Shown here: positions 6,855 through 29,666 of the stretch, in pieces | How positions within the stretch are numbered: the stretch's first letter is position 1 | Layout: each line of letters opens with the position of its first letter | Source of the DNA: Candidatus Tabaqchalia intestinavium | Lineage (GTDB): Bacteria; Bacillota; Clostridia; Oscillospirales; CAJFTT01 | Length of the DNA: 64,000 nucleotides | Reading direction: 5' to 3' | Assembly: GCA_904420005.1 (NCBI GenBank) | Contig: CAJFTT010000042.1 | Coordinates: 13,970 to 77,969 of the forward strand | Position numbers and translations under genes: made by a program | Notes under the pieces: model-generated | Told to the model about the DNA's origin: nothing | The model's input: the letters and a program-made list of their open reading frames with translations, nothing else | The model's database searches: none

Positions 6855-7195
6855 GCGAGGAAGTCAAACGGTCGCGCGCGCCCATGCCGAAAGGCCGGCG
6901 CGTGAGGAAAGTCCGAGCTCCACAGGGCAGGAATAGCGGATAACGTCCGCCGGAGGCGACTCCAGGGAAAGTGCAACAGAGAGATACCGCCGAGCAATCG
7001 GTAAGGGTGGAAAGGCGAGGTAAGAGCTCACCGGCCTGCGCGGAGACGCGCGGGTCCTGTAAACCCTATTCGGAGCAACACCGTTATGGGACATATGGCT
7101 TGCCCGGCCGTCCCGAGGTGGCTTGAGACCGTCAGCAATGGCGGCCCTAGATAGATGATCGTTCTCGACAGAACTCGGCTTACAGGCTTGCTCGC
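6855..7195 (+). ncRNA. rnpB: RNase P RNA (bacterial class A)
   Basis: Universal motifs GAGGAAAGTCCGAGCTC, GAAAGTGCAACAGA, TAGATAGATG, ACAGAACTCGGCTTA; P1 pairing GCGAGGAAGTC/GGCTTGCTCGC. Confidence 0.96.
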
Positions 7196-7198
7196 ACC

Positions 7199-13507: not shown

Positions 13508-16500
13508 TCATTTGGAATCGATCGTATCGACGGACGGCACGATGTCCTCCAGCACGTCGAGCAGAATGCGCGCCGTGTCGAGCGAGGTGAAAGCAGTCAC
13601 GCCGTTTTCCACTGCGCAGCGGCGGATGTACGCGCCGTCATCGGCGTGCGAGCCGGAAAAAAGCGAACGGGTATTGATGATATAGCTGACATACCCTGCG
13701 CGAATGGATTGCAGGATCTGGTCGCTGCCCTCGCTGATTTTCCCCAGCACGCGGGTTTTGATGCCGTGCTTGCGGAGGAAAGCCGCTGTACCGGCCGTGG
13801 CCTCGATGTTGAAGCCCAGGCGGTAAAACCGCTGCACAAGCGGCAGGGCCTCCTGCTTGTCCTCGTCGGCCAGCGTGACAAGCACGGTACCGTAATCGCG
13901 CACATGAATGCCCGACGCCTGCAGCGCCTTGTACAGCGCGCGGTTGAGCCGCGTGTCGTAGCCGATGGCCTCGCCCGTGGATTTCATTTCCGGGGAGAGA
14001 TAGGTGTCCATGCCGCCGAGCTTCGAGAAAGAGAAGGCCGGCGCTTTGACGTACCACCGCGGTTTCTTGCCGGCGAGGGAAAGCGCCGCGCGCTGCTCCT
14101 GCAGCGATTGCCCCAGCATGGCCCTGACCGCGATCTCCACAAGATTGCAGCCGGCTGACTTGGACAGAAACGGGACGCTGCGGGACGCGCGGGGATTGAC
14201 CTCGATGATATAGACGTTCTCGTCGCTGTCTACGATGAACTGGATATTGAACAGCCCCACGATGCCAATGCCGAGCCCCAGCTTGGTGGTGTAATCGAGG
14301 ATCGTATCCCGCACTTTCTCCGACAGGCTGAAGGGAGGATAGACGCTGATGCTGTCGCCCGAATGCACGCCGGTGCGCTCGACCAGCTCCATGATGCCCG
14401 GCACGAACACTTCCTTGCCGTCGCAGATGGCGTCGACCTCCACCTCTTTGCCGGTGACATATTTGTCGACCAGTACGGGTTTGTCGACGTCGACCTCCAC
14501 GGCGGTTTTCAGATAATGCCGGAGCATGGCGTCGTCCGCCACGATCTCCATCGCCCGGCCGCCGAGCACGAAGCTGGGCCGCACGAGCACCGGGTATCCG
14601 ATCTCCGCCGCGACGCGCAGCCCGTCCTCCATGGTGGTGACGGCCGCGCCGGTCGGATGGGGAATGCCGAGAGAAAGAATGAGGTTTTCAAATGCGTCGC
14701 GGTTCTCGGCCTTTTCGATGGCTTCGCACCCTGTGCCGATGATGCGCACGCCGCGCCGCGCCAGCGGCTCGGCCAGATTGACCGCGGTCTGTCCGCCGAG
14801 GGAAACGATGACGCCCAGCGGCTTTTCATGCTCGAGGACATTCATCACGCTTTCCACCGTCAGCGGCTCGAAATAAAGCTTATCAGCCTGCGTGTAATCG
14901 GTGGAGACCGTCTCGGGGTTGTTGTTGATGACGATGGCTTCATACCCCGCCTCACGAATGGTGCGCAGCGCATGCACGGTGGAATAGTCGAATTCCACGC
15001 CCTGGCCGATGCGGATAGGGCCCGAACCGAGCACGACGATTTTCTCCCGGTCGGTCACGACGGATTCTTCTTCCGCCTCGTAGGTCGAATAGAAATACGG
15101 TACGTAGCTCTCAAATTCCCCCGCGCAGGTGTCGATCATCTTATAGGTGGGGAAGATGCCTTCGCGCCGCCGCATGGCGAACAGATCCTCCTCCTGCAGG
15201 TTCCACAGCTGCGCGAGATACTGATCGGAAAAGCCCATCTTTTTCGCCTGACGCAGCAGCGCGATATCGCCCGGCGCAGCTTCCAGCTCTTTTTCAAAAT
15301 CGACGATATTCTTGATCTTGTCCAGGAAGAACATATCAATCTGCGTGATGTCGCAGATGCGCGAATGGTCAACGCCCAGCCACATCAGCTGCGCGATGGC
15401 GTAAAGCCGGTCGTCCGTGCCCTCTTTGATGTAGTCGAGCAGTTCGTCGACCGTCATATTTTTGCGATCGAACTTCGCGGCGTGAATGTGGCAGACGCCG
15501 GTCTCCAGCGACTGGATGGCTTTGAGAATGCTTTCCTCAAATGTGCGGCCAATAGCCATCACTTCGCCCGTCGCTTTCATCTGGGTAGAGAGGGCATTGG
15601 AGCAGTTGGTGAATTTGTCGAACGGGAAGCGCGGGATTTTTGTCACGACATAATCCAGCGCCGGCTCAAAGCAGGCCGGGGTGTTGATGAGCTGGATTTC
15701 CTCCAGGCGCATGCCCACGGCGATCTTGGCCGATACGCGGGCGATGGGATAGCCGGTGGCTTTGGAAGCCAGGGCAGAGGAGCGCGAGACGCGGGGGTTG
15801 ACCTCGATGACGTAATACTGGAACGACTGGGGATCCAGCGCGAACTGGACGTTGCAGCCGCCCTTGATGCGCAGCGCGCGGATGATGCGCAGCGCGCTGT
15901 CGCGCAGCATCTGGTATTCCTTATTGGTGAGGGTTTGGCTGGGCGCGACGACGACGGAGTCGCCGGTATGAATGCCGACGGGATCGACGTTCTCCATGTT
16001 GCACACGGTGATGGCGGTGTCGTTCGCGTCGCGGATGACTTCGTATTCGATCTCCTTATAGCCCTTGATGCTCTTTTCGATGAGCACCTGATGCACGGGG
16101 GAGAGCGCCAGCGCGTGTTTCATCATTTCCTTGAGCTCCGCGTCGTCATGCGCGAAGCCGCCGCCTGTGCCGCCCAGCGTGAAAGCGGGGCGCAGGATAA
16201 CGGGATAGCCGATTTTCTGCGCGGCGGCCAGCGCTTCCTCCACGCTGAACGTGACTTCGGACGGGATGACCGGTTCGCCGATTTGCAGGCACAGCTCCTT
16301 GAACAGGTCGCGGTCCTCCGCCTGCTCGATGCTCTCCGCGTCGGAACCGAGCAGCTCAATCTGGCATTCGTTGAGCACGCCTTTTTTCGCCAGCTGCATC
16401 GCAAGGTTGAGGCCCGTCTGCCCGCCGAGGCTCGGCACGATGGCGTCCGGCCGTTCATAACGGCAGATGCGCGCGAGATATTCCAGCGTCAGCGGCTCCA

Positions 16501-16688
16501 TATAAACCTTGTCCGCGATAGAGGTGTCCGTCATGATGGTGGCGGGATTAGAGTTGACCAGCACCACCTCGTACCCTTCCTCTTTGAGCGCCAGGCAGGC
16601 CTGGGTGCCGGCATAGTCGAATTCCGCTGCCTGGCCGATGACGATCGGCCCGGAGCCGATGACCATGATTTTGTGCAGATCCGTTCTC

Positions 16689-16696
<8 letters not shown>
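13508..16696 (-). CDS. carB: Carbamoyl-phosphate synthase large subunit
   Basis: MPKRTD...[21 protein letters not shown], two ATP-grasp halves ([21 protein letters not shown]), C-terminal MGS domain. Confidence 0.97.
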
Positions 16697-19404
<2,708 letters not shown>

Positions 19405-19989
19405 TCAGTTATTATAGGTTTTGATAATATTTTCCGCGATCTCCCTGCGCTTGACGCAGGTGTCCATCGCGCGTTTTTCAATATAGCGGTGCGCTTCCGG
19501 CTCGCTCATTTTCATGTGTTCCATCAGCAGCAGCTTGGCGCGGTTGACCAGCCGGATTTCCTCCATTTTGCTCTGCAGCGTGGAAGCTTTGGCTTCCAGC
19601 GCCCGGATTTTCTGCCGCGTGGCAACCAGGAGCTTGACGGACTGAAAAACCATCTGCCGGTTGACCGGCTTGGACAGGGTCAACACACCATAGTCTTCCA
19701 CCCGATGGCTCACGGCGTCCTGCAGCTCGGCTTTGACGAACAGGAGCACGCCGCAGCTCTGTGTCTGGGCTGTTTCCAGCGCGAACTGCACGCCGAAGTC
19801 GTCGGGCAGCGGAGAATTGATGATGAGGATATCAAACGGCCTGTCCACCAACATCCGTCTGGCTTCCCCCACAGTGTGAACGGAGAGGATCGGAGAAAAT
19901 TCCTGCGGCGGCAGAAGCTGGGTCAGCAGCGCCGTCGCTTTCTCGCCTGCAGAAACGATCAAGATGCTCATTTGACTTTTTTCCTGCAT
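19405..19989 (-). CDS. ANTAR-domain RNA-binding antiterminator with pseudo-receiver domain (NitR/AmiR-like)
   Basis: C-terminal ANTAR signature EEIRLVNRAKLLLM..MSEPEAHRYIEKRAMD...RREIAENII; N-terminal REC fold with ILIVSAG and ILIINSPLPD replacing the acidic and phospho-acceptor Asp residues. Confidence 0.9.
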   Translation of the reverse strand: MQEKSQMSILIVSAGEKATALLTQLLPPQEFSPILSVHTVGEARRMLVDRPFDILIINSPLPDDFGVQFALETAQTQSCGVLLFVKAELQDAVSHRVEDYGVLTLSKPVNRQMVFQSVKLLVATRQKIRALEAKASTLQSKMEEIRLVNRAKLLLMEHMKMSEPEAHRYIEKRAMDTCVKRREIAENIIKTYNN

Positions 19990-20028
19990 CAAGCGGGCCT
20001 CTCCTTTCGTGCGGGGTATAGGGGAACG

Positions 20029-21219
20029 TCACGCGAGAATATCCGGCATACAGCGGCGGATCAGCTCGCTTTGCCGGGCCAGCTGGAGCGCTTCCTCCAG
20101 CGTGGCGGGCAGCGTTTCCAGCGCCTGCGTGACGCCGGGACCCGCGGTGAAAAGATTCAGGTCGAGCGGCTGACAGAGCGGAAGGCGTCGGCGGATGCCG
20201 TCAAGCCCCGCGTGGATCAGCAGCGCATAGGCAAGATACGGGTTGGCGGCGGGATCCGGGGAGCGCAGCTCAAAGCGCACATATTGTCCTTTGGCTGCGG
20301 GAATGCGGATCAGCTGAGAACGGTTCTCGGAGGACCAGGTGACATATTTGGGCGCTTTCTTTTCTCCCAGCCGCAGATAGGATTCCTCCGTGGGATTGAG
20401 AAACGCAGTGATTTCGCGAATATGGCAGAGGATCCCCGCCATGAATGCGTCGGTGTCCTCTTTGCCGCGGGGGCTTTGCAGAGAAATGTTAATGTGCAGG
20501 CCGTTGCCGCTCTGCCGCTCGAGCGGCTTGGGAGAGAAGCAGGCGAAGAGGCCGTTTTGTGTGGCGATGGTTTTGACGACCGCCTGGAAGGTGACGGCGT
20601 TGTCCGCGGATGTCAGCGCGTCGCTGTAACGGAAATCGATCTCGTTCTGGCCCGGCCCTTCCTCGTGATGGGAGCTTTCCGGCTGGATCCCCATGTTTTC
20701 CAGCGTCAGGCAGATGTCGCGCCGGATGTTTTCCCCGCGGTCATCCGGCGCAATGTCCATATAGCTGGCGCTGTCAAACGGAATTTTTGTCGGGCGACCG
20801 TTCTCGTCTGTCTGGAACAAATAAAACTCAAATTCCACGCCGAACGAGCAGGAAACCTGCAGCTTTTCCGCTTCTGCGATGGCCTGCTTGAGCAAAAAAC
20901 GGCTGTCCCGGCGAAACGGCGTGCCGTCCGGGTGCCGGATGTCGCAAAACATACGAACCACGCGTCCCTGCGCGGGCCGCCAGGGAAGGACCGAAAGGGT
21001 AGAAGGGTCCGGGAAAAGAAACAGGTCGGACTTCACTTCATCCCCGAAGCCATGGATGGCGGAAGCGTCGAAAGAGATACCATGGAGAAAGGCGCGCTCC
21101 AGCTCCGCCGGCATGATGGCGATGTTTTTCTGCTTTCCCGTGAGGTCGCAGAACGCCAAACGGATGAATTTGACGTCTTCTTCCTGGCAGTAGGTCATCA
21201 CTTCGTCATAGGAATACAT
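20029..21219 (-). CDS. glnA: Glutamine synthetase type I-like protein, C-terminally truncated, catalytic flap Glu absent
   Basis: KFIRLAFCD, FDASAI, GVEFEFYLF, HHEEGPGQNEIDF, PKP...GNGLH, NRSQLIRIP, FELRSPDPAANPY; 396 aa. Confidence 0.88.
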   Translation of the reverse strand: MYSYDEVMTYCQEEDVKFIRLAFCDLTGKQKNIAIMPAELERAFLHGISFDASAIHGFGDEVKSDLFLFPDPSTLSVLPWRPAQGRVVRMFCDIRHPDGTPFRRDSRFLLKQAIAEAEKLQVSCSFGVEFEFYLFQTDENGRPTKIPFDSASYMDIAPDDRGENIRRDICLTLENMGIQPESSHHEEGPGQNEIDFRYSDALTSADNAVTFQAVVKTIATQNGLFACFSPKPLERQSGNGLHINISLQSPRGKEDTDAFMAGILCHIREITAFLNPTEESYLRLGEKKAPKYVTWSSENRSQLIRIPAAKGQYVRFELRSPDPAANPYLAYALLIHAGLDGIRRRLPLCQPLDLNLFTAGPGVTQALETLPATLEEALQLARQSELIRRCMPDILA

Positions 21220-21341
21220 GCTTTTCCTTCCTTTCTATGTTTCTATGCAGCGGCTCTATGCTGCGGCGCGAACGTCGTTCCCCTGCAAAGCGGCCGGCGC
21301 GAACCATGCCGGAACGAAGCTCCCAAGCGGCCGTGTGCAAC

Positions 21342-21409
21342 AAAAAAAGCGTCTCATATGCCGCGAGAAGAAACACTTCTCCAAAACATATGAACGCCAT
21401 TGCCCATAT
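21342..21409 (-). promoter_or_regulatory. ANTAR-target hairpin overlapping an intrinsic terminator (glnA-like operon leader)
   Basis: Minus-strand RNA AUAUGGGC-AAUGGC-GUUCAUAU; its 3' arm alternatively pairs with CAUAUGAGACGC, followed by U7. Confidence 0.75.
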
Positions 21410-21431
21410 CGAATTCCCCTATTTTCTTTTT

Positions 21432-21461
21432 ATTATATAATCTTGCACACAGGTTTGTCAA
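21432..21461 (-). promoter_or_regulatory. SigA promoter of the glnA-like/ANTAR/pyrG...dapL operon
   Basis: Minus strand TTGACA-18 bp-TATAAT. Confidence 0.8.
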
Positions 21462-21620: not shown

Positions 21621-22379
21621 ATGGGAACTATCTGCTGCGTCAGTTTCAGCCCGACCGGAACGAGCAAAAACGTAGCATGTCAGATTGCACGGGAGTTGGA
21701 AGGCGAGAAAACCACCGTTGATCTGTGCGAAGCTCCCGCAAAAGACATCCAGTTTGGACGCAACGATCTCTGCATCTTTTCCGTGCCATGCTACGGAGGC
21801 CGGATCCCGCAGACTGCGGCGGCGAGGCTTTCCCGCCTGCACGGGGATGCGACTGCGGCGATTGTCTGCGTCACATTTGGAAACCGCGCGTTTGAGGACG
21901 CATTGCTGGAACTGGCGGATACAGTAGAGGCGCAGGGGTTTGCCGTGTTTGCCGGTGCGGCTGTCGCGGCAGAGCATACTATTATGCATATCTTTGGGCA
22001 GGGGCGCCCGGACGCGGCGGACCGGGAGGAGATTGCGGCGTTCGCGCGTCAAGCGGCCCGAAAGCACTGCGCCGGCGACAGCGTTCGGCCCGCGTTACCG
22101 GGCAATCGTCCTTATCGGGCGTGGCACGGCGGCAGCACCCCCATTTTGGTGAAGGAAGCGACCTGCAACCACTGCGGGCTGTGCGCGCAGCGCTGTCCGG
22201 TGGACGCGATTTCGCCCGACGGCAGCAGGACGGACGCGGGGCAGTGCATTGGCTGCATGCGCTGCATTCAGCAGTGCCCTACCGCGAGCCGATCCCTGCC
22301 GGCCGAGCATGTCGCGGCGCTGATCGCGCGGCTGGGGCCCGCGTGTGAAGGCAGGAAAGCGAATGCATTTTACTTATAA
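21621..22379 (+). CDS. Flavodoxin-like + 2x[4Fe-4S] ferredoxin fusion (EFR1 family)
   Basis: FSPTGTSKNVA, PCYGGRIP, FGNRAFEDALLEL; CNHCGLCAQRCP and CIGCMRCIQQCP. Confidence 0.88.
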   Translation: MGTICCVSFSPTGTSKNVACQIARELEGEKTTVDLCEAPAKDIQFGRNDLCIFSVPCYGGRIPQTAAARLSRLHGDATAAIVCVTFGNRAFEDALLELADTVEAQGFAVFAGAAVAAEHTIMHIFGQGRPDAADREEIAAFARQAARKHCAGDSVRPALPGNRPYRAWHGGSTPILVKEATCNHCGLCAQRCPVDAISPDGSRTDAGQCIGCMRCIQQCPTASRSLPAEHVAALIARLGPACEGRKANAFYL

Positions 22380-22506: not shown

Positions 22507-22535
22507 TTGACAAACTGGCACGAAGAGAGTATACT
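22507..22535 (+). promoter_or_regulatory. SigA promoter of the GSIII-gltB-gltD operon
   Basis: TTGACA-17 bp-TATACT. Confidence 0.85.
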
Positions 22536-22543
22536 CTCAACGT

Positions 22544-22772
22544 AACAACGGCAATGACGTCGCGGTAAGAAATTTCTGCTTCGTCGTTGTTTTTTTATTT
22601 CCCGGACAAAGCCCGGCAGCGATCGGCGGTTTTGCCAATGGAGGCGAAAATCGCTTGGCCGGAGGAACCGGAACGGTGCGGCCGATAGTCTGGGGAAAAT
22701 ATTCTTTTGTGAACAAGCGGCAAGGGCGTCGCGGGACAGTTGTCCCGAGGAGCCCCTGTCGCTTTATTTTTT
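22544..22772 (+). promoter_or_regulatory. Leader with three ANTAR-type hairpins and two overlapping intrinsic terminators
   Basis: CGGC-AATGAC-GTCG (22549-22562), GCC-AATGGA-GGC (22634-22645), CGGC-AAGGGC-GTCG (22718-22731); terminator stems AACAACGGC/GTCGTTGTT + T tract and AAGCGGCAAGGGC/GCCCCTGTCGCTT + T-rich tract. Confidence 0.78.
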
Positions 22773-22789: not shown

Positions 22790-24886
22790 ATGAATGCGAT
22801 CACAAACCTGTTTGGCACGAACGTTTTCAACGACGCGGTGATGCGCGAGCGTCTTCCCAAGGAAACGTACCGGCAGCTGCAGCGCACAGTTAAAGAAGGC
22901 AAGCATCTGGACAATGCGGTCGCCAATGTCGTTGCCAACGCCATGAAGGATTGGGCCATCGAAAAGGGAGCGACGCATTTCACGCACTGGTTCCAGCCCA
23001 TGACAGGCATCACGGCGGAAAAGCACGACAGCTTTATTACGCCGACGGACGACGGGCGCGTCATTTTGGAATTTTCCGGCAAGGAGCTGATCCAGGGAGA
23101 GCCGGACGCGTCGTCTTTCCCCTCCGGCGGCCTGCGGGCGACCTTTGAGGCCAGAGGATATACCACCTGGGATCCCACTTCTTATGCGTTCATTAAGGGG
23201 AAAACGCTGTGCATCCCGACGGCGTTTTGCTCGTACGGCGGGGAAGCGCTGGACAAGAAAACGCCGCTGCTGCGCTCGATGGAGGCCATCAATCGGCAGG
23301 CGCTGCGCGTTCTGCGCCTGTTTGGCGACACGGCGGTGACCTCTGTCAAGACGACCGTAGGCCCTGAACAGGAATATTTCCTGGTAGAAAGGGAAATGTT
23401 TGAAAAACGCCCCGATCTGGTATTCACCGGCCGGACTCTGTTCGGCGCGCGGCCGCCCAAGGGACAGGAGCTGGACGATCATTATTTCGGCACCATCAAA
23501 ACCCGCGTGGCTGAATACATGGAGGACCTCAACGAAGAGCTGTGGAAGCTGGGCGTGCTGGCCAAGACGGAGCATAATGAAGTCGCGCCGGCGCAGCACG
23601 AGCTCGCGCCTATTTTCAGCACGACCAATATCGCCACCGATCACAACCAGCTGACGATGGAGCTGATGCAGCGCATCGCGAAAAAGCATGGCCTGGTCTG
23701 CCTGCTGCATGAAAAGCCGTTTGCCGGCGTCAACGGCTCCGGCAAGCATAATAACTGGTCGATCTCCACCAGCACCGGCAAGAACCTGCTGGATCCGGGC
23801 GACACGCCGCGGGAGAACGCGCAATTTTTGCTGTTTTTGTGCGCGGTTATCCAGGCGGTGGATGATTACCAGGATCTGCTGCGCGTGTCGGTCGCCTCGG
23901 CGGGCAACGACCATCGCCTGGGTGCCAATGAAGCGCCGCCGGCGATCGTTTCGATCTTCCTGGGGACGGAGCTGACGGAGATTCTCGACTCCATCGAAAA
24001 GGACGAACAGTACGGCACGAAGGAAAAAGAGCTGTGGAAGGTCGGCGTACATATTCTTCCGCGCTTCCCCAAAGACACGACCGACCGCAACCGCACTTCG
24101 CCGTTTGCGTTTACAGGTAACAAATTCGAGTTCCGCATGCTGGGTTCCAGCAATTCCATTTCGGGCGCCAACATCGTGCTCAACACCGCCGTGGCGGAGA
24201 GCCTCCGGCAGTATGCCGATGAGCTGGAATCGGCGGAGGATTTCAACAAAGCGCTGCATGATCTGATCCAGCGCACCATCCGGGAACACAAGCGCATCAT
24301 CTTCAACGGTAACGGCTACGATGAGGCGTGGGTGAAGGAAGCGGAGCGCCGTGGGTTGCTCAACCTCAAGACGACCCCGGAATGCCTGCCTTACTTCTGC
24401 GCGGAGAAAAATGTGCAGCTGTTCACGCAGCATCGCGTATTTTCCGAGACGGAGATCAACGCCCGCTGCGAGATTATGCTGGAGACCTACAGCAAGATGC
24501 TCAATATCGAGGCGCTGACCATGCTGGATATGGCCAATAAGGATCTGCTGCCGGCCTATTCGGCGTACGCCCGGCAGCTCAGCGAGGCGCTTCTTGCGAA
24601 GAAAGAGGCGGCGCCCGGCGTGGACTGCACGTACGAGGAAGAGCTGCTGCGCAAGGTTTCCGGTCTGTGCGGCGGTATGTATCAGAAAACCAAGGCGCTG
24701 GAAGCGACGCTGCTGGAGCTTGTCCATAAGGACTGCAGCGAGCTTGAGAAGGCTCAGTATTACCGCTCGGTGGTGTTTGGCGCCATGAATGAGCTGCGCA
24801 TTGTCGCCGACGAGCTGGAAAGCGTGACGGATCGCAAATATTATCCGTATCCCACCTATGGCGATCTGCTGTTCGGCGTGCGCTGA
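22790..24886 (+). CDS. glnN: Glutamine synthetase type III
   Basis: [101 protein letters not shown]; ATG 22790 after RBS AAGGAG. Confidence 0.96.
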
Positions 24887-25145: not shown

Positions 25146-28100
25146 ATGCAACAGCAACAACAGGGCCTGTACCAGCCGTCGTTTGAGCACGACGCCTGCG
25201 GCATCGGCGCGGTCGTCCAGATCAAGGGGAAGAAGAGCCATCAGGTCGTGGACGACGCGCTGAAGATCGTTGAAAAGCTCGAACACCGCGCCGGAAAGGA
25301 CGCCACGGGCGAGGTCGGGGACGGCGTGGGGATCATGCTGCAGATCTCGCACCCGTTTTTTGAGAGCGTGGCGCAGGAGCATGGCTGCTTTCTGGGGAAA
25401 GAAAGGGAATACGGCGTAGGGATGTTTTTCTTCCCGCAGAATCGGCTCTTGCGCACGCAGGCGATGAAAATGCTGGAGGTCATCGTGCAGAAGGAGGGGC
25501 TGGAGCTTGCCTTCTGGCGCGAGGTACCCGTGCACCCGGAGGTTTTGGGCAAAAAGGCGCTTGACTGCATGCCTGCGATTTATCAGTGTTTCATCAAAAA
25601 GCCGAAGGATTTGCCCGCCGGCATCGCGTTTGACCGGCGGCTTTACGTGGTGCGCCGCACATTTGAACAGAGCGACAACGGCACGTATGTCGCGTCGCTG
25701 TCCAGCAGGACCATTGTGTATAAAGGGATGTTCCTGGTGCATCAGCTGCGGGAATTTTATGACGATCTGCAGGATGAACGCTATACTTCGGCGATGGCGC
25801 TGGTGCATTCCCGCTTTTCCACCAATACCAATCCCAGCTGGGAACGGGCGCATCCCAACCGGTTCCTGCTGCACAACGGCGAGATCAACACCATCCGTGG
25901 CAACGTCGACCGTATGCTCGCCCGGGAGGAAACGATGCATTCTCCTTTCCTGCAGGGGGACATGGACAAGATCCTGCCGGTCGTGGACGACAATGGTTCC
26001 GATTCCGCGATTCTCGACAATACGATTGAATTTCTCGTCATGAACGGGATGGATTTGCCGCTGGCCATGATGATCACCATCCCTGAGCCCTGGGACGGAG
26101 AGGAGAATATCAGCCGGGAGAAAAAGGACTTTTACCGGTATTACGCCACGATGATGGAACCATGGGACGGTCCCGCCTCCATCCTGTTTTCCGACGGCGA
26201 TCTCGTGGGCGCGACGCTCGACCGGAACGGGCTGCGGCCTTCGCGCTACTATGTGACGGACGACGACATGCTCATTCTCGCCTCCGAAGTAGGGGTGCTG
26301 GATATCCCGCCGGAACGCATCGTGCGCAAGGCGCGTCTGGAACCCGGAAAAATGCTGGCGGTCGATATGATGCAGGGCAGGATTCTTTCCGATGAAGAGC
26401 TGAAAAATTCTTATGCCCGCCGGCAGCCGTACGGAGAATGGCTCGACCGGAACGTGGTCAATCTCGCCACGCTTAAAGCGCCCAATCAGAAGGTGGAGAC
26501 ACATCCGCAGGCGCAGCGCGACAAGCTGTATAAAGCGTTTGGCTATACCTATGAGGATATCAAGACGGCGATTCTCCCCATGGCGCGGGACGCCAACGAG
26601 CAGACCGCTTCGATGGGGATCGACATCCCGCTTGCGGTGCTGTCCGACAAGCACCAGCCGCTGTTTAACTATTTTAAGCAGAGCTTCGCGCAGGTCACGA
26701 ATCCGCCCATCGACGCCATCCGGGAGAAGATCGTCACCAGCACCACGGTATACGCCGGCTCCGACGGCAATCTGCTCGAGGAAAAGCCGGAAAACTGCAC
26801 GGTGCTGCAGATCGACAATCCCATTCTCACCAGCGTCGATATGCTCAAGATCAAGGCGCTCGACCGCCCCGGACTGAAAACGGCCACCGTGTCGCTGCTG
26901 TATTACCGCAACACACCCGTGAAGAAAGCGCTGGATCGCCTGTTTGTGCAGGTGGATAAGGCCTATAAGAACGGGGCGAATATCATTGTTCTGTCCGACC
27001 GCGGCGTGGATGAGAATCACGTCGCCATCCCGTCCCTGCTTGCCGTGTCGGCTATGGAGCAGTATCTGATCCGCACCAAAAAGCGCACGGCTATTTCCAT
27101 CATCCTGGAAAGCGGGGAGCCGCGCGACGTCCATCATTTTGCGACGCTGCTGGGCTACGGCGCGATCGCGATCAATCCGTATCTCGCGCAGGAAGCCATC
27201 GAGGAACTGATTGAGAACAACATGCTCAACAAGGATCTGTATGTGGCCATTGCGGACTACAACAAAGCGATTCTCAGCGGCGTGGTCAAGATCGCTTCCA
27301 AAATGGGCATTTCCACGCTGCAATCGTATCAGTCAGCGCAGATTTTCGAAGCGGTCGGCATCAAGCAATCGGTGATCGATGCCTATTTTACCAATACGGT
27401 CAGCCGCGTGGAGGGGATCGGGCTGGAGGAGATCGATCAGGACATCCATGTCCGGCACGCGCATGCGTTCGACCCGCTGGGGCTGGGCGTGGATACCACG
27501 CTGGATTCTTCCGGCAGCTATCATCTGCGCAGCGGCAGGGATAAGGACGATCATCTTTACTCGCCCGAGGTGATTGTGGCGTTGCAGCAGGCGACGAAAA
27601 CCGGCAGCTATGAGAAATTCCAGGAGTATACCGCGATGGTGGACGACGAAACCCGGCCGCATACGCTGCGGGGACTGATGGATTTTGTTTTCGACGAAGC
27701 GGGCGGCGTTCCGCTGGAAGAGGTGGAACCGGCCGAGTCCATCGTGCGGCGGTTTAAGACCGGCGCGATGTCCTATGGCTCGATTTCCGAGGAAGCGCAC
27801 AAATGTATGGCGCTGGCGATGAACCAGCTCGGCGGCAAATCCAACTCCGGCGAGGGCGGCGAGCTGCCCGAGCGTCTGAATTCCGAATATGGCAGCGCCA
27901 TCAAGCAGGTGGCGTCCGGCCGCTTCGGCGTCACAAGCGAATATCTCATTTCGGCACGGGAGATCCAGATCAAGATGGCGCAGGGTGCGAAACCGGGCGA
28001 AGGCGGCCACTTGCCCGGCAAAAAGGTGTATCCCTGGATTGCGAAAACGCGCTATTCCACGCCCGGCGTGTCGCTGATTTCGCCGCCGCCCCATCATGAC

Positions 28101-29666
28101 ATCTATTCCATTGAAGATCTTGCGCAGCTGATCTACGACCTGAAAAATGCGAACCACAATGCGGATATTTCCGTCAAGCTCGTTTCCGAAGCGGGGGTGG
28201 GAACCATCGCCGCCGGCGTCGCGAAAGCGGGCGCCAGCGTCGTGCTCATTTCCGGCTATGACGGCGGCACCGGCGCCGCGCCGCGCAATTCCATCCACAA
28301 TGCCGGCATGCCCTGGGAGCTGGGGCTGGCGGAAGCGCACCAGACGCTGATGCAAAACGGCCTGCGTTCCCGGGTGCGGCTGGAAACGGACGGCAAGCTC
28401 ATGAGCGGGCGGGACGTGGCCATCGCCTGCCTGCTCGGCGCAGAGGAATTTGGCTTTGCGACGGCGCCGCTGGTGGTGATGGGCTGCCGGATGATGCGGG
28501 TATGCAACCTCGACACCTGTCCCTTCGGGATCGCGACGCAGAATCCCAAATTGCGGCAGCGGTTTGCCGGCAAGCCGGAATACATCGTCAATTTCATGCT
28601 GTTCATCGCGCAGCAGCTGCGCGAAATCATGGCGAAGCTCGGCGTGCGCACGGTCGACGAGATGGTGGGGCGGACCGACCTGCTCAGAAAGCGGGAGAAT
28701 TCCGCGGCGCCCCGCGGCGCGCTGGTGGATCTGTCGAGGATTCTGGCCCGGCCTTATCACGGCACCTGCCATTACCGGAAAGAGGACGCCTATGATTTTG
28801 CGCTGGAGAAAACGGTGGATGAGAGCGTCCTTCTGCCCAAGCTGCGGAAAAATCTCATGACAGGGGAGCCGGGAAAAGTGGAGCTGCGCGTTTCCAGCAC
28901 AGACCGGACGGTCGGCACGCGTTTCGGCTCCGAGGTGACGCGCCGGTTCGGCGGCAGCTTGCAGGAAGACACGTTCCGGATCTTCTGTCACGGCGGTGGC
29001 GGGCAATCCTTCGGCGCGTTTGTGCCACAGGGAGTGACGCTGATCCTCGACGGCGACAGCAACGATTACTTCGGCAAGGGGCTTTCCGGCGGCAAGCTGG
29101 TCGTTTCCCCGCCGAAGCGCAGCCGCTTTGCCGCCGAAGAGAATATCATCATCGGCAATGTGGCGCTGTATGGCGCGACCGGAGGCAAAGCGTTCATCAA
29201 CGGTATCGCCGGCGAACGGTTCTGCGTGCGCAATTCCGGCGCGCTGGCGGTGGTGGAAGGCGTGGGCGACCACGGCTGCGAATATATGACCGGCGGCACG
29301 GCGGTGATTCTGGGACCGACGGGCAAGAATTTCGCCGCCGGCATGAGCGGCGGCGTCGCCTATGTGCTGGATGCGGCGCATGACCTGTACCGCAAGGTGA
29401 ATAAGGAAATGGTTTCGATCGAGCCGCTCGCCGAACGGCACGACGTGGAGGAGCTGCGCCGCATTGTGACGGAGCATTATCAGAACACTTCTTCTGCGCT
29501 GGCCAAAAGGATTCTCATGGATTTTGACGCGTATGTCCCGCAGTTCAAAAAGATCCTGCCCAATGACTACCGGAAAATGCTTGCTGCCATTTCTTCTATG
29601 GAAAAAATGGGCATGAACCGGGCAGAAGCGGAGATCGAAGCGTTTTATCAGAACACGAGGGGGTAA
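25146..29666 (+). CDS. gltB: Glutamate synthase large subunit
   Basis: EHDACGIG Ntn Cys, HSRFSTNT, GAMSYGSIS, KMAQGAKPGEGG, CRMMRVCNLDTCP [3Fe-4S] motif, GXGXG domain; ATG 25146 after RBS GGAGG. Confidence 0.97.
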   Translation: MQQQQQGLYQPSFEHDACGIGAVVQIKGKKSHQVVDDALKIVEKLEHRAGKDATGEVGDGVGIMLQISHPFFESVAQEHGCFLGKEREYGVGMFFFPQNRLLRTQAMKMLEVIVQKEGLELAFWREVPVHPEVLGKKALDCMPAIYQCFIKKPKDLPAGIAFDRRLYVVRRTFEQSDNGTYVASLSSRTIVYKGMFLVHQLREFYDDLQDERYTSAMALVHSRFSTNTNPSWERAHPNRFLLHNGEINTIRGNVDRMLAREETMHSPFLQGDMDKILPVVDDNGSDSAILDNTIEFLVMNGMDLPLAMMITIPEPWDGEENISREKKDFYRYYATMMEPWDGPASILFSDGDLVGATLDRNGLRPSRYYVTDDDMLILASEVGVLDIPPERIVRKARLEPGKMLAVDMMQGRILSDEELKNSYARRQPYGEWLDRNVVNLATLKAPNQKVETHPQAQRDKLYKAFGYTYEDIKTAILPMARDANEQTASMGIDIPLAVLSDKHQPLFNYFKQSFAQVTNPPIDAIREKIVTSTTVYAGSDGNLLEEKPENCTVLQIDNPILTSVDMLKIKALDRPGLKTATVSLLYYRNTPVKKALDRLFVQVDKAYKNGANIIVLSDRGVDENHVAIPSLLAVSAMEQYLIRTKKRTAISIILESGEPRDVHHFATLLGYGAIAINPYLAQEAIEELIENNMLNKDLYVAIADYNKAILSGVVKIASKMGISTLQSYQSAQIFEAVGIKQSVIDAYFTNTVSRVEGIGLEEIDQDIHVRHAHAFDPLGLGVDTTLDSSGSYHLRSGRDKDDHLYSPEVIVALQQATKTGSYEKFQEYTAMVDDETRPHTLRGLMDFVFDEAGGVPLEEVEPAESIVRRFKTGAMSYGSISEEAHKCMALAMNQLGGKSNSGEGGELPERLNSEYGSAIKQVASGRFGVTSEYLISAREIQIKMAQGAKPGEGGHLPGKKVYPWIAKTRYSTPGVSLISPPPHHDIYSIEDLAQLIYDLKNANHNADISVKLVSEAGVGTIAAGVAKAGASVVLISGYDGGTGAAPRNSIHNAGMPWELGLAEAHQTLMQNGLRSRVRLETDGKLMSGRDVAIACLLGAEEFGFATAPLVVMGCRMMRVCNLDTCPFGIATQNPKLRQRFAGKPEYIVNFMLFIAQQLREIMAKLGVRTVDEMVGRTDLLRKRENSAAPRGALVDLSRILARPYHGTCHYRKEDAYDFALEKTVDESVLLPKLRKNLMTGEPGKVELRVSSTDRTVGTRFGSEVTRRFGGSLQEDTFRIFCHGGGGQSFGAFVPQGVTLILDGDSNDYFGKGLSGGKLVVSPPKRSRFAAEENIIIGNVALYGATGGKAFINGIAGERFCVRNSGALAVVEGVGDHGCEYMTGGTAVILGPTGKNFAAGMSGGVAYVLDAAHDLYRKVNKEMVSIEPLAERHDVEELRRIVTEHYQNTSSALAKRILMDFDAYVPQFKKILPNDYRKMLAAISSMEKMGMNRAEAEIEAFYQNTRG

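Follow-up and report, generated by a model that had tools for sequence, protein, structure and literature searches.

Can a glutamine synthetase (GS) that carries lysine in place of its catalytic flap glutamate serve as the glutamine sensor of an RNA-binding regulator? The question is raised by two adjacent genes in a 64,000-nt stretch of DNA from Candidatus Tabaqchalia intestinavium (contig CAJFTT010000042.1, positions 13,970 to 77,969 of the forward strand; the whole stretch is called the window, and coordinates are counted from its first letter), one encoding a type I GS-like protein and the other a putative antiterminator with an ANTAR domain. An original prediction, made from the letters of the DNA alone, had proposed that the GS-like protein is a dedicated sensor that binds or releases its neighbour. 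As the best explanation, held tentatively and at a little less than even confidence, we read the locus as a nitrogen circuit of the glnA-nitR type in which the main task of the GS-like protein is to sense glutamine on behalf of the ANTAR antiterminator. The parts of the pair referred to below are as follows.

20029..21219, minus strand: GS-I-alpha-like protein of the short-flap truncated class (396-aa open reading frame [ORF]; Pfam; PDB alignment; AlphaFold2 model)
19405..19992, minus strand: pseudo-receiver ANTAR antiterminator, NitR-type (195-aa ORF; Pfam; PDB alignment)
20350..20373, minus strand: flap RLGEKKAP, residues 283-290 (alignment to solved and clostridial GS)
21037..21042, minus strand: Asp60-Glu61 of the D50 loop (alignment of 'gfgdevksd' with 'gftrieesd')
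19816..19818, minus strand: Asn59 codon, at the phospho-acceptor Asp position of the ANTAR protein (alignment to 1s8n and 6wsh)

The Lys-flap GS-like protein and its ANTAR neighbour

Pfam recognised both domains of the GS-like protein (Gln-synt_N, 84.2 bits; Gln-synt_C, 285.8 bits; both above cut-offs), and its closest solved relatives in HMMER searches were GS-I-alpha proteins, those of Methanosarcina mazei (8s59/8tfb, E = 5e-108) and Bacillus subtilis (4lnf, E = 1e-102). The score against the GlnA equivalog model TIGR00653 was 339.5 bits, lower than the cut-off of 429.15, and the match stopped at model position 417 of 462; weaker matches were obtained with TIGR03105 (254 bits) and with gamma-glutamylputrescine synthetase (210 bits; cut-off, 650). 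With 74 relatives as input, AlphaFold2 gave a confident model of the monomer (predicted local distance difference test [pLDDT], 93.3). The motifs GVEFEF, HHE, GQNEID, GLH, NRS, IRIP and FELRS are all present, as the original prediction had said, and E129, E131, H184-H185-E186, E193, H242, R300, R305, R315, E317 and R319 are kept, invariant or nearly so; these residues serve in the binding of metal, ATP and glutamate.

In the B. subtilis enzyme, the E flap comprises residues 300 to 306 with the catalytic Glu304, and the two rings are joined to each other by the C-terminal helices alpha14 and alpha15, the so-called thongs (PMC9249791). The flap 'rlge.kkap' of the GS-like protein, found at precisely the coordinates predicted for it, aligned with 'rlvpgyeap' of M. 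mazei GS, is one residue shorter and has Lys288 at the catalytic Glu position, and the predicted change in the Asn loop was borne out by the alignment of RQSGNGLH with GVNGSGMH. Compared with M. mazei GS, the protein also has a 12-residue gap past the Asn loop, behind NISL (the stretch 'inisl') and ends at chain residue 411 of 446, so that ~30 to 35 residues are missing. A MAFFT alignment with 29 canonical clostridial GS agreed with the HMMER alignment to M. mazei on the flap, the Asn loop, the gap and the C-terminus. Sequence extending past the end of the query amounted to 2 to 11 residues in the truncated class (see below) and to 30 to 32 in full-length GS. The predicted early stop at 396 aa therefore stands; as to the further claim that the ring-joining helices are lost with it, the missing stretch probably includes at least the last thong helix.

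The ANTAR ORF begins 36 nt after the GS-like ORF (~40 nt had been estimated). Its product scored 66.8 bits against Pfam ANTAR (cut-off, 27.3) and 22 bits against Response_reg, below the cut-off of 30.2, and aligned with Rv1626, 6wsh and AmiR over the linker and ANTAR domain. The acidic pair of the receiver is replaced by Ser14-Ala15, and Asn59 aligned with the phospho-acceptor Asp of Rv1626 (1s8n) and 6wsh; judged by sequence, the protein is a pseudo-receiver that cannot be phosphorylated, in keeping with what had been predicted. The absence of a nearby histidine kinase was likewise confirmed, in that no HATPase_c match was found on the contig of the window and the 16 matches in the genome all lie on other contigs. 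The pseudo-receiver carries the motif N-(T/S)-P-L-x-D-(D/E)-F-G, in which P61, L62, D64 and G67 were invariant in 74 sequences and Asn was present in at least 90%. A prediction of the complex between the two proteins from paired 74-row alignments scored 0.08 against a mark of 0.32; run without controls, it counts neither way.

Conservation was assessed in 80 loci (63 to 82% identity) that were collected with the GS-like protein as anchor from species-representative genomes, all of them Oscillospiraceae, Acutalibacteraceae or Ruminococcaceae-type metagenome-assembled genomes (MAGs) and relatives. An ANTAR gene lies downstream on the same strand in 77 of the 80 loci, and the other three loci end <300 nt past the GS gene; in all 77 loci with room, the GS-like gene is directly upstream of the ANTAR gene and co-oriented, with gaps of 2 to 260 nt. 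Lys288, Gly285, Ala289 and Pro290 were invariant (80/80), Glu286 was found in 74 and Lys287 in 69 of the 80 relatives, and the key residues of GVEFEF, HHE, GQNEID, GLH, NRS, IRIP and FELRS were invariant in 74 to 80 relatives, as were the ammonium-site residues Asp51, Ser53 and Tyr153 among relatives. The ratio of nonsynonymous to synonymous substitution rates (dN/dS) was 0.025 to 0.062 in six closer gene pairs, which places the gene under strong selection rather than in decay. A pseudogene reading was rejected on intact ORFs and a dN/dS of 0.03 to 0.06. Apart from these relatives, the representative library held two giant proteins, P0121 (4424 aa) and P0122 (2757 aa), with 12 and 6 stretches, respectively, that match the GS-like protein at ~32 to 33% identity. 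Polyproteins with GS domains in tandem, or else artefacts of assembly, may account for them.

The altered positions can be set against the glutamine lock described for B. subtilis-type GS, in which bound glutamine touches Glu304, the Arg62 of the neighbouring subunit's D50 loop holds Glu304, and the Gln-Glu304-Arg62 lock fixes flap and D50 loop in the GlnR-binding conformation; the GlnR tail contacts Arg62, Arg316 and helix alpha15 (PMC9249791). Arg62 is reported to be required for glutamine feedback inhibition (PMC10799026). The equivalent of Arg62 was Arg in 22 of 28 canonical clostridial rows of the alignment, Asn, Ser or Asp in short-flap rows that keep the flap Glu, and part of 'DE' (12/25) or 'GE' (5/25) in Lys-flap rows; the GS-like protein of the window has Asp60 at this position and Glu61 next to it. 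In the alignment, the change from Glu to Lys in the flap is accompanied by a change from Arg62 to an acidic residue on the partner loop. This charge swap might amount to a salt bridge of reversed polarity, through which the latch could be preserved and the catalytic base given up. Given the single origin of the Lys-flap clade (see below), the swap is one evolutionary event. The derived parts of the protein (E flap, Arg62 position and C-terminus) coincide with the three regulator-binding elements of GS-I-alpha.

GS-I/ANTAR pairs across Clostridia

ANTAR domains were found in 195 of 399 sampled Clostridia genomes. From 150 listed of 214 matches we took one ANTAR locus per genus (97 loci, with ~2.7 kb around each), and among the matches listed, a GS-I homologue was directly upstream on the same strand in 70 of the 97; one further locus, L170, in which the upstream hit was a GSIII, was left out of the 70. 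Again among the matches listed, the 70 divide into a canonical class of 29 (~441 aa, flap RLVPGYEAP with Glu in 27 and Asp in 2, full C-terminus) and a short-flap class of 41, in which the flap position was Glu in 11, Lys in 24, Ser in 2 and Arg, Phe, Asn or Thr in 1 each. Short-flap rows keeping Glu were full-length in 10 of 11 cases, the other being cut by a contig end, whereas 23 of the 24 Lys-flap rows were truncated like the protein of the window.

A quick maximum-likelihood tree of 68 rows (IQ-TREE) divided them into long-flap and short-flap clades (support, 99 for both), with a truncated Lys clade of 26 rows (95) nested in the latter; rows with R, K, N, T or F in the flap stood elsewhere within the short-flap clade, in several separate places. 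The pairs form a series from canonical GS through a short flap with Glu to the truncated Lys form. By the tree, the catalytic Glu gave way to other residues several times among short-flap GS and not once in the canonical clade, and the Lys/truncated form arose essentially once.

The ANTAR proteins differ with their neighbours. Those without a GS neighbour (n = 27) had Asp at the phospho-site in 20 cases, usually together with a DD pair; those next to a canonical GS (n = 29) had Asp in 7, Asn in 8, Gly in 12, Glu in 1 and Ser in 1; and those next to a short-flap GS (n = 41) had Asn in 36. By inspection, the DD pair was found in none of the 70 GS-linked ANTAR proteins. With no DD pair and a phospho-site that is mostly not Asp, GS-linked ANTAR proteins are pseudo-receivers as a class. 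GSIII, counted by hand, was present with 24 of 29 canonical, 9 of 11 short-flap Glu and 22 of 23 Lys-flap GS; because it is common in all classes, its presence was rejected as a class discriminator. In locus L160, from the Lys-flap genome G066, the truncated GS has further metal-site motif changes (SRHEE and QHEVH).

Leader hairpins and the nitrogen genes around the pair

The pair and a divergent GSIII gene have leaders of similar design; the relevant features are listed here.

21432..21461, minus strand: sigma-70-like promoter of the GS-like/ANTAR operon (TTGACA, 18-nt spacer, TATAAT; 12/12)
21340..21410, minus strand: operon leader element, with hexaloop hairpin (21390-21407) overlapping the terminator 5' arm, and U run
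22507..22535, plus strand: sigma-70-like promoter of the GSIII gene (11/12)
22544..22599, plus strand: GSIII leader element 1, CGGC[AAUGAC]GUCG and terminator
22717..22772, plus strand: GSIII leader element 2, GCGGC[AAGGGC]GUCGC overlapping a strong terminator, directly 5' of the ribosome-binding site
22790..24886, plus strand: type III glutamine synthetase, divergent from the pair and likely the catalytic GS (GSIII_N, 277.5 bits; Gln-synt_C-ter; Gln-synt_C)

A shared 12-nt leader pattern had exactly three matches in the window, all in leaders. Each of the three hairpins overlaps the 5' arm of a terminator hairpin that is followed by a U run, and the hexaloops have A as their first and G as their fourth nucleotide (A1/G4), both reported to be essential for ANTAR binding (PMC3369936, PMC3369931). 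The hairpin in the ~200-nt leader of the GS-like operon, AUGGGC[AAUGGC]GUUCAU, scored 39.1 bits in covariance model R1, this site being part of the training set. The hairpin was found in 53 of 72 related upstream regions, with a T run next in 52 of the 53, and the motif with five further pairs occurred in 37 of 77 leader occurrences and in 49 of 1840 at other places within these loci. Across 52 aligned rows, loop positions 4 to 6 and the 3' arm form pairs with the stretch immediately 5' of the U run, 8 of the 10 base pairs of the terminator show compensatory changes, and the alternative hairpin was paired in 93.9% of cells compared with 33 to 48% with a slid partner; since the inner four pairs were the selection criterion, only the outer two are independent. 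The 49 non-leader motif hairpins in the 80 loci (~2.7% of occurrences) are more numerous than chance would lead us to expect, and these hairpins may mark other members of the regulon.

Four sites were found in the source genome: that of the GS-like gene, two of GSIII and one of amtB. The amtB site (contig C21:15917-15960, minus strand) has the hairpin GAAC[AAAGGC]GUUC and a terminator between the -10 box and the ammonium transporter gene, and was weak in R1 (22.4 bits, E = 0.17). Because R1 finds its two window training sites and misses the second GSIII site, the regulon list is a minimum. A loose genome-wide regular expression (hairpin and T run) had given 229 mostly spurious hits and was replaced by the covariance model. 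The two hexaloop-terminator units of the GSIII leader stand in tandem, ~170 nt apart (22544-22772, plus strand), an arrangement that could give a steeper or two-step response.

The GSIII gene that the original prediction had placed nearby is intact by Pfam. Three other genes of the neighbourhood are of note for nitrogen metabolism or for the arrangement of the locus.

25146..29666, plus strand: large glutamate synthase, gltB-like, downstream of GSIII
17770..19392, minus strand: CTP synthase pyrG, starting 12 nt past the ANTAR stop and possibly co-transcribed with the pair
21621..22379, plus strand: EFR1-family ferredoxin (flavodoxin-like and 2x[4Fe-4S]), between the pair and GSIII

The order of the minus-strand features is promoter, leader, GS-like gene, ANTAR gene, pyrG, carA and carB. 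All three enzymes of pyrG-carA-carB (13508-19392, minus strand) take glutamine as nitrogen donor. In the related loci, pyrG lies downstream of the pair on the same strand in 48 of 80, so that glutamine-consuming enzymes may be co-transcribed with the putative glutamine sensor. A GSIII gene was upstream on the opposite strand in 44 of these 80 loci and gltB was present in 10; the EFR1 ferredoxin was present in none, which marks it as a local insertion into the divergent region. The source genome, a MAG that is 82% complete, contains no other GS-I, two GSIII genes and one ANTAR gene. An Rfam scan of the window matched only a full-length bacterial RNase P class A RNA (6856-7198, plus strand, 266 bits), with no family over the leaders.

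The proposed circuit, its alternatives and known systems

In the circuit that we favour, the active ANTAR protein would bind the A1/G4 hexaloop hairpin, which would compete with the intrinsic terminator and permit read-through. Upon nitrogen limitation, the ANTAR protein would be free, and its own operon, GSIII (probably with gltB) and amtB would be transcribed through. In glutamine excess, glutamine would be locked in place by a latch of Lys288 with Asp60'/Glu61' of the neighbouring subunit, and the GS-like protein would hold the ANTAR protein via the conserved pseudo-receiver loop, resulting in termination. The GS-like protein would have retained its ring interface and a pocket for nucleotide, metal and glutamate/glutamine and have lost part of the C-terminal thong; the two GSIII enzymes would carry out bulk glutamine synthesis. 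The analysis shows the layout of the locus, its conserved linkage, the pseudo-receiver, the residue changes with their co-variation and the leader elements; that the two proteins touch, that activity has been lost and which way control runs are steps that we infer, the last of them from physiology and from deletion of the type I GS of Clostridium thermocellum, upon which nitrogen genes reportedly go up.

A more specific version of the circuit, which we consider doubtful, is that evolution has made of the GS-I-alpha fold a dedicated glutamine receptor with essentially no catalysis, in which a charge-reversed Lys288-Asp60'/Glu61' latch would replace the Glu304-Arg62' lock and a remodelled pocket would dock the N-(T/S)-P-L-x-D-(D/E)-F-G loop. 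If true, it would be a route from GS to an RNA antiterminator that would explain nitrogen sensing by NitR-type regulators across Clostridia, including those with an active GS. On the circuit in general, were GS the sensor, nature would have provided in the truncated Lys-flap class a separation-of-function form (sensing without catalysis) and a bacterial example of a pseudoenzyme of GS fold, and many "glutamine synthetase family proteins" annotated in gut Clostridia may not make glutamine. The interest of the locus lies chiefly in making the sensing mechanism of NitR-type regulators testable, in Clostridia that are abundant in gut and rumen.

The dedicated-sensor claim of the original prediction is supported in part, in that it agrees with the linkage, the selection, the pseudo-receivers, the changes in flap, D50 loop and C-terminus and the leader hairpins. 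Canonical, intact-flap and presumably active GS are likewise paired with pseudo-receiver ANTAR proteins, in 29 loci, so that pairing itself is independent of a loss of catalysis and might mean no more than that an enzyme and its regulator are expressed together. Several other points also weigh against the circuit as proposed. All residues that bind ligands are preserved, Asp51, Ser53 and Tyr153 of the ammonium site among them, so the GS-like protein could still be an enzyme, and Glu286 (74/80) might partly act as flap base. The single origin of the Lys/truncated clade reduces its 24 rows to one event, the class-wide sample, built around ANTAR genes, is silent on how frequently short-flap GS occur without an ANTAR neighbour, and genome G066, with a Lys-flap GS, is 100% complete and has no GSIII match. 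In each leader, one conserved hexaloop was found, compared with two in the published ANTAR target; in most relatives the promoter is immediately 5' of the hairpin, which leaves no room for a second hexaloop upstream, and the loops of inner hairpins break the A1/G4 rule, the window offering one weak second-hexaloop candidate, AAU[AGGGGA]AUU. Finally, the likeness to C. thermocellum (see below) is one of gene neighbourhood.

The strongest competitor, though in our view an unlikely one, is a GS-like protein that is a working GS, perhaps slower or differently regulated, co-transcribed with a regulator that senses nitrogen otherwise, through a small ligand on the pseudo-receiver, PII or another partner. 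Invariant metal-, ATP-, glutamate- and ammonium-site residues, the very low dN/dS, the pairing of canonical GS with the same kind of ANTAR protein and the glnA-nitR precedent of Clostridium saccharobutylicum (PMC6316151) all suit a working enzyme, but the catalytic Glu position invariably holds Lys, 6 of 80 relatives have another residue in place of Glu286, residues at the flap position change freely within the short-flap clade, the C-terminal thong is cut short, and two GSIII genes are present, one of them adjoining and under the same leader motif. It is improbable that the GS-like protein acts as a positive co-factor, a scaffold joining two ANTAR monomers as feedback-inhibited GS does for GlnR, with binding as the activating step. 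The adjacent active sites of feedback-inhibited GS are described as placing two GlnR monomers into an active dimer (PMC9249791), and RNA binding by ANTAR proteins is reported to need dimerisation (PMC3369936, PMC3369931); nitrogen-assimilation genes, however, should come on at low rather than high glutamine, and the reported deletion phenotype in C. thermocellum would suggest a negative role. Least probable is that the protein works as a gamma-glutamyl ligase on some other amine, of polyamine, ethanolamine or methylamine type, like GlnA2-4, PuuA and GmaS, with the flap change reflecting a new substrate. Altered-flap GS paralogues are known for such activities, and the score below the GlnA equivalog cut-off and the weaker matches to TIGR03105 and gamma-glutamylputrescine synthetase fit as well; the best matches by far, however, are to true GS-I-alpha, the ammonium pocket (Asp51, Ser53 and Tyr153) is invariant, no catabolic genes for such amines lie beside the GS-like gene, and linkage to a nitrogen-assimilation regulator and to GSIII is strict.

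AmiC and NasS have a periplasmic-binding-protein fold, whereas the neighbour of the ANTAR gene here has a GS fold. The proposed circuit otherwise resembles AmiC-AmiR and NasS-NasT, in which a pseudo-receiver ANTAR protein is held by a ligand-binding partner from the adjacent gene and released by the ligand (PMC3369931, PMC3795266). EutV-type regulators share the ANTAR domain and an A1/G4 hexaloop whose 3' arm overlaps the terminator (PMC3369936, PMC3369931), but are phosphorylated by a kinase and act on two hexaloop hairpins; here we found no phospho-Asp, no kinase on the contig and one conserved hexaloop at the very 5' end of the transcript. With B. subtilis-type GS-I-alpha and its partners TnrA and GlnR, the locus would share the sensing of glutamine and the passing of the signal by contact at the E flap, Arg62 of the D50 loop and alpha15 (PMC9249791); there, the partners bind DNA, are of the MerR type and carry a C-terminal tail, and the GS is fully active, whereas the partner presumed here binds RNA and has a pseudo-receiver. 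Should GS be the sensor, the principle known from B. subtilis, by which GS informs a regulator about glutamine, would reach RNA-binding antiterminators, beyond DNA-binding repressors.

The GlnA of C. saccharobutylicum we take to be a canonical, active GS of ~440 aa. The gene pair glnA-nitR and control of nitrogen genes by an ANTAR protein are already known. A literature search outside subscription papers and supplements returned no description of a GS as ANTAR partner, of a truncated Lys-flap GS or of the mechanism by which NitR senses nitrogen. In C. (Acetivibrio) thermocellum, the neighbourhood is the same (ANTAR gene Clo1313_2030, type I GS 2031, glutamate synthase [GOGAT] 2032-36 and GSIII 2038; PMC4676874, PMC9888227), and deletion of the type I GS is reported to deregulate nitrogen metabolism (PMC9888227, PMC7063780). 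The C. saccharobutylicum pair likewise consists of a GS-I gene followed by that of an ANTAR regulator, which induces GS and GOGAT genes under nitrogen limitation by antitermination (PMC6316151, PMC4676874). In the locus described here, by comparison, the flap carries Lys, Arg62 is replaced by Asp, the protein lacks a loop of 12 residues as well as ~30 residues at the C-terminus, and it is probably GSIII that does the catalysis.

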